Assembly: GCA_963726195.1 (NCBI GenBank)
Contig: CAVSBO010000018.1
Location: forward strand, 55,894-119,893
Source of the DNA: Candidatus Thorarchaeota archaeon
Lineage (GTDB): Archaea > Asgardarchaeota > Thorarchaeia > Thorarchaeales > Thorarchaeaceae
DNA length: 64,000 nt
Direction of reading: 5' to 3'
Each line of letters opens with the position of its first letter. The first letter of the stretch is position 1. The notes under the pieces were generated by a model. It saw only the letters and a list, made by a program, of their open reading frames with translations, had not been told where the DNA came from and did no database searches. The position numbers and the translations under genes are program-made. Positions 55,647 to 62,053 of the stretch are shown here, in pieces.

Positions 55647-57056
55647 TCACTGTCTTGTGGGTTCGACAATCTGCTTGGGCGCCGGCGGCTCATTATTCCT
55701 TCCTACCAAACCAATGCGAGCAATTGACGCTAGGATGATAATATTGAGAATGAGAACGACAGTGAAGAGCTGTGAGGGATCTGCGTATGTAAACAGAAGA
55801 CCGCCAATGAAAGGTCCAAAAGACATGAAAAGATAAACGACAAACCAAAAGACGGCCAGCGTCTTTGCGGTATCTTGTCGCGGGAGTCTCTTTTGAATCA
55901 GTGTTAACAGTACTAGACTCCATAGTGTGTCATTGATGCCCTTGATGACAAGTGCCAGAAACGGTGTTGTAAACACGATACTGAGTCCTGGCATTCTAGA
56001 GTCGGCGATTTGGACCAGCTGTAGTGGAACCCAGTATGGGACGACCGGGGCCAGTATAATCAGGATTGCACACAGAGGCATCACACTGTATACGGCAAAG
56101 GCCGCCTTTCTGACCCCTCTTCGATCTGAGAACCTCCCGATTTTCAGGAGCAGGGGAACTGACGCGACGAGAGCGACCAATACAATGACCGTGATGCCTG
56201 ATATCGAGACGCCGAGGTACTCATTAGTATAGAGAAGCGCTCCGAAACTGAAGAGAGCATCACTGAACGAATCCAGAATGACGACAACGAGAACTCCTGG
56301 CATCACTTTCAGAAGCAAGTTCACTGCGTGGCGGTTCTCGCGAAGGAAATCCTTCCAAAGTGGAGTGCCAACAGCTCTCTTTCTTTGCACACTCGACGTG
56401 AGAAAGCGTGCCCGCGCTGCTGTACATGCGAAGAATAGCAGACCAGCCGAAACGAAACAGAATCGTATGGCGAGTGCAAAACCCACAAGCGGAACAAGAA
56501 TGCCAAACGGAATCAAGACCAGTACTCCGAAAGAGTTCCCTGCCGTAAATAGGGAGAGTGCAAAGCCACTCTCCTTCTGTGGGATATTGTCCATGATGTA
56601 TGCCGAGGACCCTCCTTTTGCTATGTCCATGGTTGCATAGACCATTAGACCGGCAAAGATGGCCGTGAAATCAGTGAAGAGTCCTAGCATTACATGGCTG
56701 ACAGCTGCCATAAACATTGCAATGACCGCGAGTTTCTTGCGGTCAACAGCATCGCCGACGTATCCACCAAGGATTCTTGCAATCGCCGACGTGGTACTAA
56801 CAATTGCCATTACGAATCCTATTTGCAGATAGTCCCAACCACTGGCTCGCAAATAGAGATTCAACAAACTCCAAACTACTAGGAACGCACTGAATATCCA
56901 AGAAGTGACTAGATAAACAGCATAATTGTGCCAAGCGAAAATCGACTTGAGTGAGGTTCGGACACCAGAACGAGACAACTGGGTTTCATCGTTGCTGGAC
57001 TGGTAATCTTGTGGCGCACCAATTCCGACGGGTTGCTCATCCGACGATTCACTCAC
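55647..57056 (-). CDS. MFS transporter
   Basis: 12 TM helices; motif-A-like GYVGDAVDRK and GRFSDRRGVR. Confidence 0.9.
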   Translation of the reverse strand: MSESSDEQPVGIGAPQDYQSSNDETQLSRSGVRTSLKSIFAWHNYAVYLVTSWIFSAFLVVWSLLNLYLRASGWDYLQIGFVMAIVSTTSAIARILGGYVGDAVDRKKLAVIAMFMAAVSHVMLGLFTDFTAIFAGLMVYATMDIAKGGSSAYIMDNIPQKESGFALSLFTAGNSFGVLVLIPFGILVPLVGFALAIRFCFVSAGLLFFACTAARARFLTSSVQRKRAVGTPLWKDFLRENRHAVNLLLKVMPGVLVVVILDSFSDALFSFGALLYTNEYLGVSISGITVIVLVALVASVPLLLKIGRFSDRRGVRKAAFAVYSVMPLCAILIILAPVVPYWVPLQLVQIADSRMPGLSIVFTTPFLALVIKGINDTLWSLVLLTLIQKRLPRQDTAKTLAVFWFVVYLFMSFGPFIGGLLFTYADPSQLFTVVLILNIIILASIARIGLVGRNNEPPAPKQIVEPTRQ

Positions 57057-57248
57057 ATGATCATCATCTCGTCCTCTTGCCGGGCGCTTTGCAACCTCTT
57101 CCGTGTCTTTCTCCTTCTGCAGGCTTGGGAGCGGTCCTCAATGATGGGACCAACATGGCACTACAATCCACTGCATGACAGAATGCATCAGCCATGGATT
57201 TCAACTCCTGTAATCCCTTATCCTTGCGCCCGTCACGAATCGTTGCAA

Positions 57249-57281
57249 GCAAAACCCGTACGTTGTGCGCCCGGGCTTTGC
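57249..57281 (-). terminator. Stem-loop after the 85-aa gene
   Basis: GCAAAACCCG...CGGGCTTTGC inverted repeat. Confidence 0.45.
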
Positions 57282-57539
57282 TCACGATTCGAAAACGAGC
57301 ACTTTCACATCGCCATCGGCCGTTGGCACAGCCATTAGCCTGTGTGTGCATATGTCTGCTGTCAGGACGAGGCACTCAGGAGGCGCCTTGGATGACATAA
57401 GGTTCTTGACTGCCAGTTCGAGGTTCAGAGCGACAAGCCTGATGATTTCCGGATCATTAAGCACATCAACCTCTCTGCCCGTCTCAGACATAGCAGAATA
57501 CTCTATTGCTGTTGTTCCGATTCTTTCTGTTTCTATCAT
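57282..57539 (-). CDS. Small hypothetical protein (85 aa) downstream of the peptide genes
   Basis: SD GGGAG; globular composition. Confidence 0.75.
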   Translation of the reverse strand: MIETERIGTTAIEYSAMSETGREVDVLNDPEIIRLVALNLELAVKNLMSSKAPPECLVLTADICTHRLMAVPTADGDVKVLVFES

Positions 57540-57578
57540 TATTCTTCGTCTCCCTTTTCATGAGGTATGTATCTTTGT

Positions 57579-57623
57579 TTACCATGGTGTTGGATCTGGT
57601 GATATTGGATTTGGATTAGACAT
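57579..57623 (-). CDS. Micropeptide MSNPNPISPDPTPW (14 aa)
   Basis: SD GGAGGAG 7 nt upstream; near-identical copy at 57760-57804. Confidence 0.7.
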   Translation of the reverse strand: MSNPNPISPDPTPW

Positions 57624-57759
57624 GTGTTCTCTCCTCCGTTGAATGAATGCTCCGATGTTGACCTGAGCAACACTGTGCTACGGGTTCCGTTGTGTTGCCT
57701 TTGTTCAGGGTATTCCATTTTGTTTCTCTCTCCCTCTGGTTCGAACGTGGTTCTCACGT

Positions 57760-57804
57760 TTACCATGGGCATGGGTCTGGTGATATTGGATTTGGATTAG
57801 ACAT
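57760..57804 (-). CDS. Micropeptide MSNPNPISPDPCPW (14 aa)
   Basis: SD AAGGAGGA; differs from the other copy by a synonymous Asp change and T->C. Confidence 0.7.
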   Translation of the reverse strand: MSNPNPISPDPCPW

Positions 57805-57927
57805 GTGTTCTTTCCTCCTTTCTCCGACGGGTGAAGCTCGAGTACCTAATGTCCAATGCAATTGCGCGACAAGGTGGTCGCTGGACAGCATGGACCCATT
57901 GGAGACTCCGTGCGTTCTGTGTTCTGC

Positions 57928-58050
57928 CTAGAACGGACTGGGGTCTTCACAGGGCGGCTGTACAACGGTCGAAATGCCACGCACTATTCCGACTGACAAC
58001 AATCTGAGAGCGATTCGGTTGTCGGTCATGCTCTCGTAGATCGTGCGCAT
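57928..58050 (-). CDS. Peptide of 40 aa (45 aa if it starts at ATT 58065) ending VVQPPCEDPSPF
   Basis: SD AAGGAGGTGA at 58071-58080; C-terminal DPxP[F/W] shared with the 14-mers. Confidence 0.6.
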   Translation of the reverse strand: MRTIYESMTDNRIALRLLSVGIVRGISTVVQPPCEDPSPF

Positions 58051-58420
58051 GCGATCTGTGCTAATGCTTGTCACCTCCTTTGCTAAGCTTGCTTGGATAT
58101 CGATACTCTGGAATGCCTTCTACACACGGTCCCACCTTTGCTATTATGGCCCGTTGGGTGCCAGCTAGGCTCGGTCCAGCCCGATGGCACCGGCTGCAGA
58201 GGCCATTCCGGCAGTTTCAGGCACTGAAACTGTAGAGAATATATCCGCATTCCAGATTAAGAATTAGTAGGGTTGCCATGGGGCGCAATTAGGGCCGACA
58301 AAGCCAAAGATAAGGAGCCGTGGCCCGGAGTCCCCATTTTCATATATCGGACTATGACTAGGTGTGCAAAAGAAGATAAGAAAATAGGCCCCAAAACTTT
58401 ACAATCGGCCAACGACTTTT

Positions 58421-59509
58421 GTGCCCAAGGAGTCGATTTTGAACATGCTTTATGCTGCGGACATGAGGTTGCTAAGAAGGTTGGCAATGAATCCGGGCAT
58501 GCGCCAAAGCGATCTGGCGAAGGATCTTCACGTAAGCAGACCAATGGTCAACCAGACATGGCAGAAACTAGCTCACGATAATGGTCTTCAAGTAAAATCC
58601 AACATTGACTATGGACAGGTGGGCATGAGTCTCGTGTTTGGCTGGGCGCAGGCCTCAGAAACCTCGGATCGTCTCAGGGATTTCTGTACGTGGCTAGAGT
58701 CCAATGTCCACGCAGCAGAAGTGACAGAATCTGTCATGTCATCAAGAAGCAATGCTGCTGTCTACTTCGAAGTCATCATACCCCCAAGTGATACCCCGCC
58801 ATTTCCCTCTCGTTTCATGGAATGGTCGAGCGATACCTCAAGTGACTTCGCTATCAAATACGATCTCGCAAGGGAGGTCTCGAACCATCTAAACATGGGA
58901 CTCTTCAATGGCGGCCAGTGGACTCTCGACGAAGGATTTCGGTTCGAAGCCAGCACTGGGGCCGTAAAGGATTACGCGGATGTGCTCCCGACCATGAGTT
59001 CGCTCAAGCTCAGCAAACCCGTCACAGCTACAATAGAGAATATGGCAATTCTGTCCGTTCTCGAGGACAACTACCATGCCTCAGTCGGAGAGGTCACCAA
59101 GTACATGAGCCACTTGGGCCTGCAGAGTGTTCCCGAGAGAACTCTCAGAAGACGCATCGATATCATTCGAAGAAGGATGACCTTACCTTATGTCACTCTC
59201 AGCAACATCGGCCTCACAGACCGATTTTTCCTGTGCATCGATTCAGGCACTCAGGAATCAACCCTATCCAGGGCGCTCCACATTCAGGCGAGCACTTTGC
59301 CAAAGGCGAGAGTCTTGTCGGGTCGCAGTCTCTCAGTCCTAAGTATAGAGTTACCATCCCTCAGGAACTGGCTAGCGCTTACATCATCGCTGATGCAGAT
59401 CACGAAAAGCCCCGCGGAAACACTCACATTCATAGCACAAGAATCCGCTACCAAAAACACATTAGAGCAGGCTATCCAAGGAGTGACGAGAAAGCACGGT
59501 CACGCGTAA
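58421..59509 (+). CDS. Large regulator with duplicated wHTH/Lrp-AsnC-like modules
   Basis: QSDLAKDLHVSRPMVNQTWQKL HTH, IDYGQVGM linker; second HTH SVPERTLRRRI and LSNIGL. Confidence 0.8.
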   Translation: MPKESILNMLYAADMRLLRRLAMNPGMRQSDLAKDLHVSRPMVNQTWQKLAHDNGLQVKSNIDYGQVGMSLVFGWAQASETSDRLRDFCTWLESNVHAAEVTESVMSSRSNAAVYFEVIIPPSDTPPFPSRFMEWSSDTSSDFAIKYDLAREVSNHLNMGLFNGGQWTLDEGFRFEASTGAVKDYADVLPTMSSLKLSKPVTATIENMAILSVLEDNYHASVGEVTKYMSHLGLQSVPERTLRRRIDIIRRRMTLPYVTLSNIGLTDRFFLCIDSGTQESTLSRALHIQASTLPKARVLSGRSLSVLSIELPSLRNWLALTSSLMQITKSPAETLTFIAQESATKNTLEQAIQGVTRKHGHA

Positions 59510-59575
59510 GCCTATTCGAATTGAGATGACCAGACCCATATGCTCGTTGCTGTAAGCAGAGAGGTGCCTTGAGAG

Positions 59576-60997
59576 TTGGTGCCGGGCCAGAGCGCCTTGC
59601 CAGAGATATCCACGCCGTATGATGACTTGATTCCATCGGTGGAGGATTCTTCCTCCCGTTTCTACCTTGAGGCAATTCGCCTATACCTTGCTCTGTGTGC
59701 TGGAACAGTATCTTTTGAAGATGCTAAACGTGTCGTTGAGCATCTGAAAGAGAACCCCGAGTTCGCAAAGTCTCCGACCGACCCGACTGTGGTTCCTGTC
59801 AACGAGCGTTTCATGAAGAAGATTATTGACAATCTTAAGACGCTCAAGAAGTACAACCTTCATACATCTGACTCGATCAAGTCCGCCTACAGCTTCGCAT
59901 TCCTGAATGAAGATGCTTCAATCAACGACAAGGATTTTCAAATCCTTTCCTGCCTTGCAGATTCACCGCTTGCGACCGCAAATGCCATCGCGAGAACCTT
60001 AGGGTTTGCTCCTAAGACAGTCTCAACATCTCTTCTTCGTCTGAGGGAACGACATGCGGTAAGATTCAGCTGTCTGTTCGACAACACGGCCTTTGGTATT
60101 CAGTCTGTCGTCCTTTTCTTCAAGCTGGCTGAAGGAATTGACTGGGCTAACGTTGAAACAGGACTGGCAGAGTTCCCATTCACTAGAAGCATTCTCAAGA
60201 CAGCCATCAGTGACTTGGGCTACGCTTCATTCATGTTTCCCGGTGGTGAGGAGGAACTCACGATTCTTCGTTCTAGTGCGAGCCGGCTTGCAGGCAAGGT
60301 TCTCGACTACGTAAGCATGCATGTGCAGTCATCGACGGGTGTCGGGTCAAACCTCTCTCTGTACGAGAACGGCGCGTGGTCTCTCTCGGAAGCCGTTCGC
60401 CACCCTTTTGAAGTGGCACCTGTTGAAGGAAATAAGATTCCGCTTTATGGTCTGTCATGCGAAGGGCGAAAGAAGGAATTTCAACGCGTTGATTTTGCCA
60501 TTGCTTCTGAGCTGAGAACTGATTGTCGTGCCGCTCCGGAGACCATCAGCCAAAATCTTCGGATAAAAGGGTGGGATGTTGACCCGCGGCAAATCACAAG
60601 CTCCACCCATAGATTGATTGAGCGTCGTGTGATACTGCCATACATGGTTCTCGCAGGAATCGGCCTCACAGCCAATTTCTGTTTTGAGATAGTATGCAAG
60701 CCTGACTGGACGGAACGGATTATGTCACTGATGCCCCTAGTTCCGGCGGCTGTCTATCTTGTGTCTTCCCGGGGAGTGGTATTTTGGATACAGGTCCCGA
60801 GCCAACATCAGGTCGAGTACTACCAGTACTTCCGTTCACTGGAGCGTATGCCCGGAGTGGAGTCGGTACTACCGATCATGACTCTTGTTCAGAAGGGCTC
60901 GCGTTCCATGCTGGACCTAGTTCGTCACTGGAAAGCAGAGAAGGACTTCTGGTATGTGGAGCCAGAAGACTTGGACTTAGCCAGCTATCTGACTTAG
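59576..60997 (+). CDS. Second large duplicated wHTH/Lrp-AsnC-like regulator with an N-terminal extension
   Basis: DKDFQIL..L.DSP...IARTLGFAPKTVSTSL.RL, FDNTAFGI; second module DFAIASELRTDCR and LAGIGL. Confidence 0.8.
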   Translation: MVPGQSALPEISTPYDDLIPSVEDSSSRFYLEAIRLYLALCAGTVSFEDAKRVVEHLKENPEFAKSPTDPTVVPVNERFMKKIIDNLKTLKKYNLHTSDSIKSAYSFAFLNEDASINDKDFQILSCLADSPLATANAIARTLGFAPKTVSTSLLRLRERHAVRFSCLFDNTAFGIQSVVLFFKLAEGIDWANVETGLAEFPFTRSILKTAISDLGYASFMFPGGEEELTILRSSASRLAGKVLDYVSMHVQSSTGVGSNLSLYENGAWSLSEAVRHPFEVAPVEGNKIPLYGLSCEGRKKEFQRVDFAIASELRTDCRAAPETISQNLRIKGWDVDPRQITSSTHRLIERRVILPYMVLAGIGLTANFCFEIVCKPDWTERIMSLMPLVPAAVYLVSSRGVVFWIQVPSQHQVEYYQYFRSLERMPGVESVLPIMTLVQKGSRSMLDLVRHWKAEKDFWYVEPEDLDLASYLT

Positions 60998-61053: not shown

Positions 61054-62053
61054 TCAAGTCGCAAGTCTCTTTCTTAGAGCGATCTCGTGGAGAATCTCAG
61101 TGACAGCAGCCCTCCAGTCGCCCGAAAATGGAGGTCCAATAACGATTTCAGTGGCACCTGTCTTGACCATGGCCTCGAATTGATCGGCCATGTGCACACT
61201 GTTGCCCGTCACCGAGAATATGTCCATGATTTCTTCTGTCACATGCGCCGCACCCTGAGAAGGTCCACCATTCCTGACGGATTTGCGAATCAGCTCGACC
61301 TGCTGCATATCTACATCTGTGAGATTGATTATTTGGTCCGGAGTGTCAGCCACAACAAGTGCAATCACTCTCTTTGCAGTCGCAACGTCTAGTCCCTTGA
61401 ATGTCGGGATGGTCGGAACCCAAACGACCTTCTCAATCGAGTTGGAATCTCTCCCACTCTTCTCTGCCTCATTATTGATGATATCAATCGCATACCTGAG
61501 GTAGCCAATGGGTCCTGAAAGAATGACACCATCAGCTATCTGCCCTGCCAATCTTAACATCTGCGGACCGCGGACTCCCATGAAGACTGGCAGAGAATAA
61601 GGCCGCTTCAGTGCAAGGCTGTAGCCGCTCAGCTTGAATCAGCTCGCACTCTGCAGTCACTGTCTCTCCTGCCCATAGTTTCCTGAGAGTCTCGATGGCC
61701 TCATGCAGGGCCGTTACAGGCTTGTCAAGTTTGATTCCAAGGTTGCGCACATCTTGCATGCCACCGAAGCCTATGCCGAGAACAAACTGGCCTTCGCCAA
61801 GCTCGCTAAGCGTTCTTCCGGCTCTTGCGAGAACAGTGATGTCATGGATTGTGACTGGAATGATGGCGGTGCCAACTCTGACTCCTCTCGCGCGAAGCAT
61901 CATCGCTGTTATCAATGCGAATATGTCGTGTCCACGTCCAATGTCTTCCCCTACCCAAATGCCATCGACGCCGAGTGATTTCGCGTTTTCAGCAATCCAT
62001 GTGCATGCTGAGAGGCTCATGTTCGTTGTGATACCCAGACTTGTTCGATACAT
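61054..62053 (-). CDS. LLM-class flavin/F420-dependent oxidoreductase (Mer-like); apparent frameshift at ~61638
   Basis: GIWVGED, GVRVGTAI, FVLGIG.G, GVRGPQMLRLAGQIADG. Confidence 0.88.

Follow-up and report, generated by a model that had tools for sequence, protein, structure and literature searches.

Organisation of the locus

We analysed a stretch of 64,000 nucleotides (nt) from a Candidatus Thorarchaeota archaeon (assembly GCA_963726195.1, contig CAVSBO010000018.1, positions 55,894 to 119,893; hereafter the window, whose own numbering is used throughout), in which two genes for Lrp/AsnC-type proteins, regA and regB, are transcribed divergently from three small open reading frames (ORFs) on the minus strand. 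Two of these encode peptides of 14 amino acids (aa), each starting at an ATG 6–7 nt past a Shine-Dalgarno (SD) sequence, AGGAGG or GGAGGAG. Copy a (57804-57760; 57760..57820 with its SD) ends in DPCPW and copy b (57623-57579; 57579..57638 with its SD) in DPTPW. The third ORF, of 45 codons, occupies 57928..58078 with its SD. An 85-aa protein (57282..57539, minus strand) is encoded downstream. The original prediction, made from the sequence alone, had placed three minus-strand ORFs in this apparent gap, and they were recovered where it put them, together with the 85-aa ORF, a major facilitator superfamily (MFS) transporter (PF07690) and two divergent winged helix-turn-helix (wHTH) proteins. Judged by the conservation described below, the three small ORFs are real, conserved genes that lack annotation.

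RegB (59579..60997, plus strand, 472 aa) has a helical domain at about residues 15–110 followed by two wHTH-RAM units of the Lrp/AsnC type, found twice per chain by sequence profile and by fold. Its model has a predicted local distance difference test (pLDDT) score of 92. The best fold match is NirDL (Z 13.9, root-mean-square deviation 5.3, 282 residues aligned, 12% identity), with Lrp/AsnC regulators next. Pfam finds no TPR domain in RegB, in keeping with fold matches to Lrp and NirDL, and an ESM Atlas search with the N-terminal helical domain gave nothing usable. The recognition helices of the HTH domains are conserved. The motif HxYxR, which we take to be that of siroheme decarboxylases, occurs in one of 74 RegB sequences, and no heme-pathway genes were seen in the neighbourhoods inspected. 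RegA (58421..59509, plus strand, 362 aa) is a double-Lrp paralogue of RegB (hhalign, 99.7%, E 4.6e-26) without the N-terminal domain. It is present in 25 of 26 family genomes and in none of 124 other Asgard genomes (E<=1e-20), and is possibly a partner of RegB. RegB also has full-length homologues in several further Asgard families, Baldrarchaeia and Ca. Asgardarchaeum among them; sequence search reached no relatives beyond Asgard archaea.

Two further observations concern double-Lrp proteins. The ESM Atlas holds Bathyarchaeia clusters with the RegB shape, one of them of 717 aa (template modelling score 0.77 over 448 residues). A distant double-Lrp-like gene in the genome studied here (L239:1044-2421; G000 contig C15, 121543-122920) lies in two overlapping frames of 254 and 208 aa; it may be a split gene, a frameshift or an assembly error.

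Short proline-rich peptides in Thorarchaeota

Peptide counts were made on those 46 of 60 named Thorarchaeota loci that have at least 600 nt upstream; the loci are related and partly redundant. A short peptide ending in Pro-[Trp/Phe/Tyr]-stop is encoded in all 46 (44 found by script, two by eye) and in 41 of 42 loci of a separate metagenome set, so that a search of orthologous loci, set beforehand as an attempt at refutation, came out in favour of the peptides. In this genome SD-led ORFs of 6–25 aa ending in P[WFY]-stop occur at only 0.006 per 900 nt of one strand (41 in 5.8 million strand-bases), and a Pro-aromatic ORF at the same site in every relative is therefore not a chance finding.

The short peptides are mostly 11–16 aa long, with 29% Pro, 21% Asp/Glu and a hypervariable front. 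Their 56 distinct tails have the consensus P-x-P-E-P-W, of which the ORF selection pattern fixed the last two residues only; among the unforced positions, Pro is found at −4 in 38 tails and Glu at −3 in 39. The DPxP[WF] motif first proposed thus holds for its Pro-aromatic end and is too narrow in its Asp, which stands five residues from the C-terminus in 15 of the 56.

Copies a and b of the window lie in a duplication of 64 nt with 91% identity and differ in their coding parts by GAC/GAT and TGC/ACA, the silent change and the change at the variable residue that had been noted at the outset. Two genera carry two short-peptide copies each, and five paralogous copy pairs show 26 synonymous against 3 non-synonymous codon differences, two of the latter being TTG/ATG starts. 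Between loci L158 and L159 nine silent changes leave the peptide unaltered. All three stop codons are in use. Conservation at the level of codons rather than of DNA, as foreseen, shows that the sequences are selected as peptides, with the last residues, x-P-x-P-aromatic-COOH, as the conserved part.

The high DNA identity of copies a and b might also be expected of a repeated non-coding DNA or RNA element, and the gene might instead be an overlapping 77-aa frame (57539-57772). The synonymous excess in the peptide codons speaks against a non-coding element, and Rfam offers no match above noise for an RNA (at the locus, a single sub-threshold SAM-SAH match of 17.8 bits vs 40). The 77-aa frame differs from that of the nearest relative by 27 non-synonymous and 4 synonymous codon changes and is truncated there, which bears out the earlier view that it is not the translated frame. 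Both alternatives are already refuted by these codon-level data, and we give them practically no weight.

Two related peptide genes were seen elsewhere. The genome that holds locus L081 (G005 contig C99) has two full regA-regB copies, the second opposite a different short peptide ending in SPVPW. In the genome studied here an SD-led, Pro-rich micro-ORF of 17 aa ending in PPGGPW (L238:1626-1679; G000 contig C7, 42925, plus strand) lies far away from all double-Lrp genes. At the corresponding position the closest relative (L243) has a diverged copy that keeps the PW end, and none was found in 23 other orthologous loci. This 17-aa peptide is a possible ligand in trans.

A 45-codon ORF with a probable isoleucine-codon start

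The third peptide had been described as 40–45 aa long with a strong SD. The frame is real, but no SD lies at a working distance from the ATG at 58050. A GGAGGTG (58072-58078) sits 6 nt ahead of an ATT at 58065, and on this account we take the ORF to run from 58065 to 57928, 45 codons with a probable ATT start. Such a 45-mer is encoded in 45 of the 46 loci (it is missing in L175) and was found in Thorarchaeota only. The 45 distinct genome copies start with ATT (25), ATC (11) or ATA (9) and none with ATG; 43 metagenome copies likewise start with one of the three and never with ATG. GGAGGTG precedes the ATT, ATC or ATA by 6–7 nt in all copies. Upstream of the start the reading frame is shifted or interrupted by a stop codon, and the Met that follows five codons after the start is often replaced. 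The ORF shows proportions of synonymous and non-synonymous differences of 0.67 and 0.15, and every other frame is broken. Taken together, these features make it most likely that the 45-mer initiates at an isoleucine codon, AUH (H being A, C or U). SD and start are as far apart as at the Pyrococcus aEF1A start, which has served as a model mRNA, and aIF1 has been reported to destabilise non-AUG complexes (PMC6237735). A class-wide AUU/AUC/AUA start would offer a clear natural example of archaeal non-AUG initiation under selection.

The 45-mer is laid out as an amphipathic helix followed by an almost invariant PPCEDPxPF end. Its hydropathy peak of 1.6 is not that of a signal peptide, compared with 2.8–3.1 in the signal-bearing relatives described next.

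A peptide gene opposite regB across Asgard archaea

Outside Thorarchaeota we found about 25 RegB-like genes in eight families, each opposite a divergent Pro-rich small ORF. These ORFs lie mostly 180–380 nt from the RegB-like gene, are usually SD-led and encode 9–14 aa; the most distant are candidates from a permissive filter. Most of the peptides end in Pro plus an aromatic or aliphatic residue, and some lineages extend beyond the aromatic residue. At L062 (one ORF) and L077 (two), which belong to two genomes, the ORFs are of 40–51 aa, with a signal-peptide-like front (15-residue hydropathy 2.8–3.1) followed by an acidic Pro-rich tail of 9–14 residues, and such fronts point to a diffusible ligand. 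The gene after the peptide usually encodes a protein of 65–95 aa that aligns weakly with the 85-mer (hhalign E 3.7e-4, probability 36%) and is probably homologous to it; at L064 and L106 the regulator and peptide are kept and the downstream gene is different.

The core unit we found thus consists of RegB and a peptide gene divergent from it, in most cases with a small helix/beta-meander protein as well. On comparative sequence evidence, the pairing of a peptide gene with regB is shown across Asgard archaea. RegA and the 45-mer have been added in Thorarchaeota, as probably has the MFS link.

In one Asgard family (L074, L078, L079 and L080) a tandem pair of RegB-like paralogues (~465 and ~476 aa) was seen 5–6 kb from the peptide-linked copy; no peptide gene was found upstream of them.

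Predicted docking of the 45-mer tail in RegB

We co-folded RegB, RegA, the 85-mer and the 45-mer as four chains and scored the 45-mer. The interface score (ipSAE) was 0.71 (0.70–0.73), against 0.00 for the best of three controls, and was lost when RegB was replaced. In calibration, 58 of 80 solved complexes and 2 of 110 mismatched pairs attained this mark, figures that apply no more than roughly to a four-chain job. Runs shared at least 41% of contacts, with a partner pLDDT of 41–45. Confident contacts were confined to residues 35–45 of the 45-mer, the tail that it has in common with the 14-mers, and to RegB, where they involve both RAM sheets, the second HTH, the 436–446 loop and the N-terminal domain. 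The tail is thus predicted to dock in the central cavity of RegB, which lies between its RAM domains and is capped by the second HTH together with the N-terminal domain.

Conservation is somewhat higher at the contact residues than elsewhere in RegB (0.65 vs 0.57, p 0.04, the sequences being kin and not independent). F106, R162, K203, Q250, W403 and G440-S441-R442 are nearly invariant in Thorarchaeota; W403 and G440 are kept in 47 of 47 sequences there, and R162 in 46 of 47 and in 19 of 27 other sequences. No confident contacts of the 45-mer with RegA or the 85-mer were predicted, which is no verdict on such contacts and not evidence against them. We also considered that the 45-mer might complete the fold of the 85-mer or stand in for the RegB N-terminal domain on RegA, and rejected this, as it has no profile similarity to RegB. 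The co-fold supports binding and would fit a ligand and a substrate alike.

Peptides as candidate ligands of a transcription regulator

We propose, with a probability of roughly 0.62, a regulator-peptide cassette at this locus, with the Pro-rich micropeptides as ligands of the transcription regulator RegB. Made by the ribosome, the peptides would dock by their tails in the RAM-RAM cavity, and binding would switch RegB, alone or with RegA, at the shared promoter region and at further targets, in what is probably a feedback loop. The 14-mers, with a strong SD, an AUG and, here, a duplication, would be the abundant signal. The 45-mer presents the same tail on an amphipathic helix behind what seems a deliberately weak AUH start, and for that reason may serve, at low level, as a second ligand that competes or defines a threshold; a modulating role is proposed for the 85-aa protein. 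Whether the Thorarchaeota peptides are leaderless exported signals or a purely intracellular switch is close to an even choice. The peptide-signalling idea of the original prediction is in this way upheld for selected peptides with a conserved C-terminus, whose gene stands opposite an Lrp-like, non-RRNPP regulator across Asgard lineages and whose tail co-folds with it, and falls short in that Thorarchaeota peptides carry no signal peptide. More speculatively, the cassette may be an Asgard peptide-pheromone system independent of RRNPP, in which a tandem-Lrp receptor reads short Pro-aromatic tails. Certain lineages would export them by Sec, whereas those of Thorarchaeota would be leaderless, and there a second ligand with a non-AUG start would couple the response to the fidelity of translation initiation; this we consider doubtful.

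Several points weigh against RegB being the peptide receptor. Four chains are unlike the complexes of the calibration, and the fold of the partner itself is uncertain; unrelated proteins and not scrambled Pro-rich tails served as controls, and the score is compatible with generic docking in a cavity. Binding of the 14-mers is suggested by the tail that they have in common with the co-folded 45-mer. Thorarchaeota peptides are acidic, Pro-rich and without an export signal, unlike the hydrophobic SHP and SIP. The short peptides vary, but the tail of the 45-mer hardly does so within the class, and pairing of pocket residues with tail types, done by eye, gave no clear pattern; kin-specific signalling is for these reasons not evident. 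One Asgard family has a second RegB-like clade with no peptide found nearby, and a dedicated operator was not found at the locus.

The peptides may instead have another protein as target, such as an adaptor, a protease or the 85-aa protein, with RegB regulating the operon by another cue. Acidic x-P-aromatic C-termini are generic docking tails, as in the SSB C-terminus, a gene like that of the 85-mer accompanies the peptide in most lineages, and the second PW-ending micro-ORF described above lies far from regulators. We nevertheless think this unlikely, given that the co-fold score needed RegB and that L064 and L106 keep regulator and peptide next to a different gene. Somewhat less likely again is a system related to ribosomally synthesised and post-translationally modified peptides (RiPPs), in which RegB would be an Lrp-fold enzyme that recognises the peptide by binding its tail and modifies the variable front. 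A conserved tail with a variable front resembles the logic of follower peptides, the co-fold fits a substrate equally well, cysteines are conserved in the 45-mer, the 85-mer and RegB, and the best structural match of RegB is the siroheme decarboxylase NirDL; AhbA/B are, moreover, enzymes that had been annotated as Lrp/AsnC regulators (PMC3942049). However, no tailoring enzyme, RiPP recognition element or protease was recognised in the cassette of any lineage examined, and the variable part keeps no residue type as a site of modification. HxYxR is rare, and the head-to-head layout and the conserved recognition helices fit a regulator. The RiPP alternative raised at the outset is possible, with no dedicated enzyme recognised in the cassette.

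Translational arrest, also raised there, has fared worse and appears improbable. Pro-rich tails that stall termination could control the 85-aa gene in cis; they do form a conserved motif immediately ahead of the stop and upstream of a gene, the AUH start would show tuning at the level of translation, and a termination-arrest peptide of such size exists in PepNL (PMC11890864). Against this, the stop codon varies and lies 30–60 nt from the next start, and the hairpin between them leaves the SD of the next gene uncovered. The same tail is carried by 9–16-mers, by the 45-mer and by ORFs with a signal peptide in front, and certain lineages have peptides that continue past the aromatic residue. Its genetic linkage, finally, is to the divergent regulator, whose cavity it is predicted to fit.

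Relation to known systems

The closest working model for the regulator-peptide cassette is RopB/SIP, where a leaderless 8-aa peptide is exported, re-imported and bound by a cytoplasmic regulator (PMC10518010); the Thorarchaeota locus would be an analogue. It has in common with RopB/SIP and the leaderless communication peptide (LCP) systems of Firmicutes (PMC10518010) an ultra-small SD-led ORF beside a cytoplasmic regulator, the lack of a secretion signal, variable peptide codes and an escape from annotation. It differs in that RegB is a double Lrp/AsnC protein rather than HTH-TPR, in that the peptides are acidic and Pro-rich rather than hydrophobic, and in the added AUH-start 45-mer and 85-aa protein; it is, besides, archaeal. 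With RRNPP systems (Rgg/SHP, ComR/ComS, PlcR/PapR, Rap/Phr, AimR/AimP) it shares head-to-head regulator and peptide genes, an active part at the C-terminus and, in some Asgard relatives, a signal peptide with a short tail; as in RRNPP and LCP systems, an SD-led peptide gene adjoins the receptor gene. RegB, however, has neither TPR nor homology to these receptors, the cassette includes no Opp importer or processing protease, and the Thorarchaeota peptides have no signal peptide. Without a TPR receptor the locus is not a member of RRNPP.

In profile and fold the wHTH-RAM units of RegB resemble Lrp/AsnC regulators (FL11/PH1519, LrpC, E. coli Lrp), but RegB joins two units in one chain, adds a helical domain of 110 aa without a usable Atlas match, and has as its predicted ligand a gene-encoded peptide, not a free amino acid. 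NirDL and AhbAB also place two Lrp-like units around a central cavity; RegB differs from them by the missing HxYxR, the lack of heme-pathway context, the extra N-terminal domain and the pairing with a peptide gene. The short peptides resemble PepNL and TnaC in their ~14 codons and conserved residues ahead of the stop, and differ from them in their varying stop codon, the lack of a coupling structure over the downstream SD and their signal-peptide-bearing orthologues. A literature search, with most subscription papers beyond its reach, found no description of the cassette. It works, as we see it, like the peptide-receptor kind, belongs to no known family and is undescribed.

Quorum sensing in archaea has been described as largely unexplored, and the chemistry of the signal studied best is undefined (PMC13464002). 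Among the prokaryotes most closely related to eukaryotes, a gene-encoded peptide paired with a receptor that can be named and folded would make archaeal peptide signalling testable with purified protein and synthetic 10–14-mers, with no need for culturing. We know of no other Lrp/AsnC protein with a peptide ligand; if the proposal is true, RegB would be, to our knowledge, the first. The predicted docking makes the locus a concrete candidate for peptide-controlled gene regulation in archaea.

Neighbouring genes and putative transcription signals

The 85-aa protein is modelled (pLDDT 82) as one long helix with a three-stranded meander. With it as query, the gene turned up in 35 of 36 family genomes and in none of 24 other Asgard genomes; a profile search of 1.8 billion proteins returned 8 clusters only, all close, and an ESM Atlas feature search nothing usable. 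Fold matches are weak and Roadblock/longin/PAS-like (best Z 5.7, shared with PAS and pilin folds). The top Foldseek matches, to Ragulator/MglB, are also weak (E>=0.08), and Roadblock/longin folds have a five-stranded sheet with flanking helices.

A hairpin with a 6-bp stem (z −1.9) follows copy a (57744..57760, minus strand). Most relatives have such a small stem past the short-peptide stop and ahead of the next SD, with 40 of 60 sites at or below −4 kcal/mol and 51 of 60 below the shuffled mean. A far stronger hairpin follows the 85-aa gene (57245..57285, minus strand; −25.8 kcal/mol, z −5.2), where the median z over 60 loci is −2.4, and is likely the 3' end or a processing point of the peptide transcript. 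That transcript likely starts from a TATA-like element (58255..58267, minus strand) about 190 nt ahead of the 45-mer; a T/A-rich box lies 157–279 nt upstream of the 45-mer in 31 loci.

Ahead of regA, a 15-bp box (58397..58411, plus strand), CT[TA]AACA-NN-[TC]GGNCA, is found in almost all Thorarchaeota (strict pattern in 41 of 44 loci). We considered it as a dedicated operator and ruled this out, since like boxes precede unrelated genes in this and other Asgard genomes. It looks like a general promoter signature, and by its geometry it would suit a TATA-type promoter from which regA-regB is transcribed with a short leader or none.

The MFS_1 transporter (55647..57056, minus strand; PF07690) is adjacent in 50 of 51 loci, as is the endonuclease III gene after it, and was not seen in the non-Thorarchaeota cassettes examined. 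With endonuclease III equally linked and the strong hairpin between the transporter and 85-aa genes, a role as peptide exporter is unsupported and membership in the system uncertain. Of the proposal that the twin regulators and the transporter form one system, RegB therefore stands as part of the Asgard-wide core, while RegA is confined to Thorarchaeota and the transporter is linked no more tightly than endonuclease III.

Two coding irregularities were seen in passing. A conserved wHTH gene of 184 aa (L238:795-1346; G000 C7, 42094-42648) has an open frame of ~380–420 aa in relatives. Converging on regB, a luciferase-like gene (PF00296; window 61054-62053, minus strand) consists of two overlapping ORFs of 173 and 175 aa; in relatives it is one piece of ~325–330 aa, and the split reflects either a frameshift or a sequence error.

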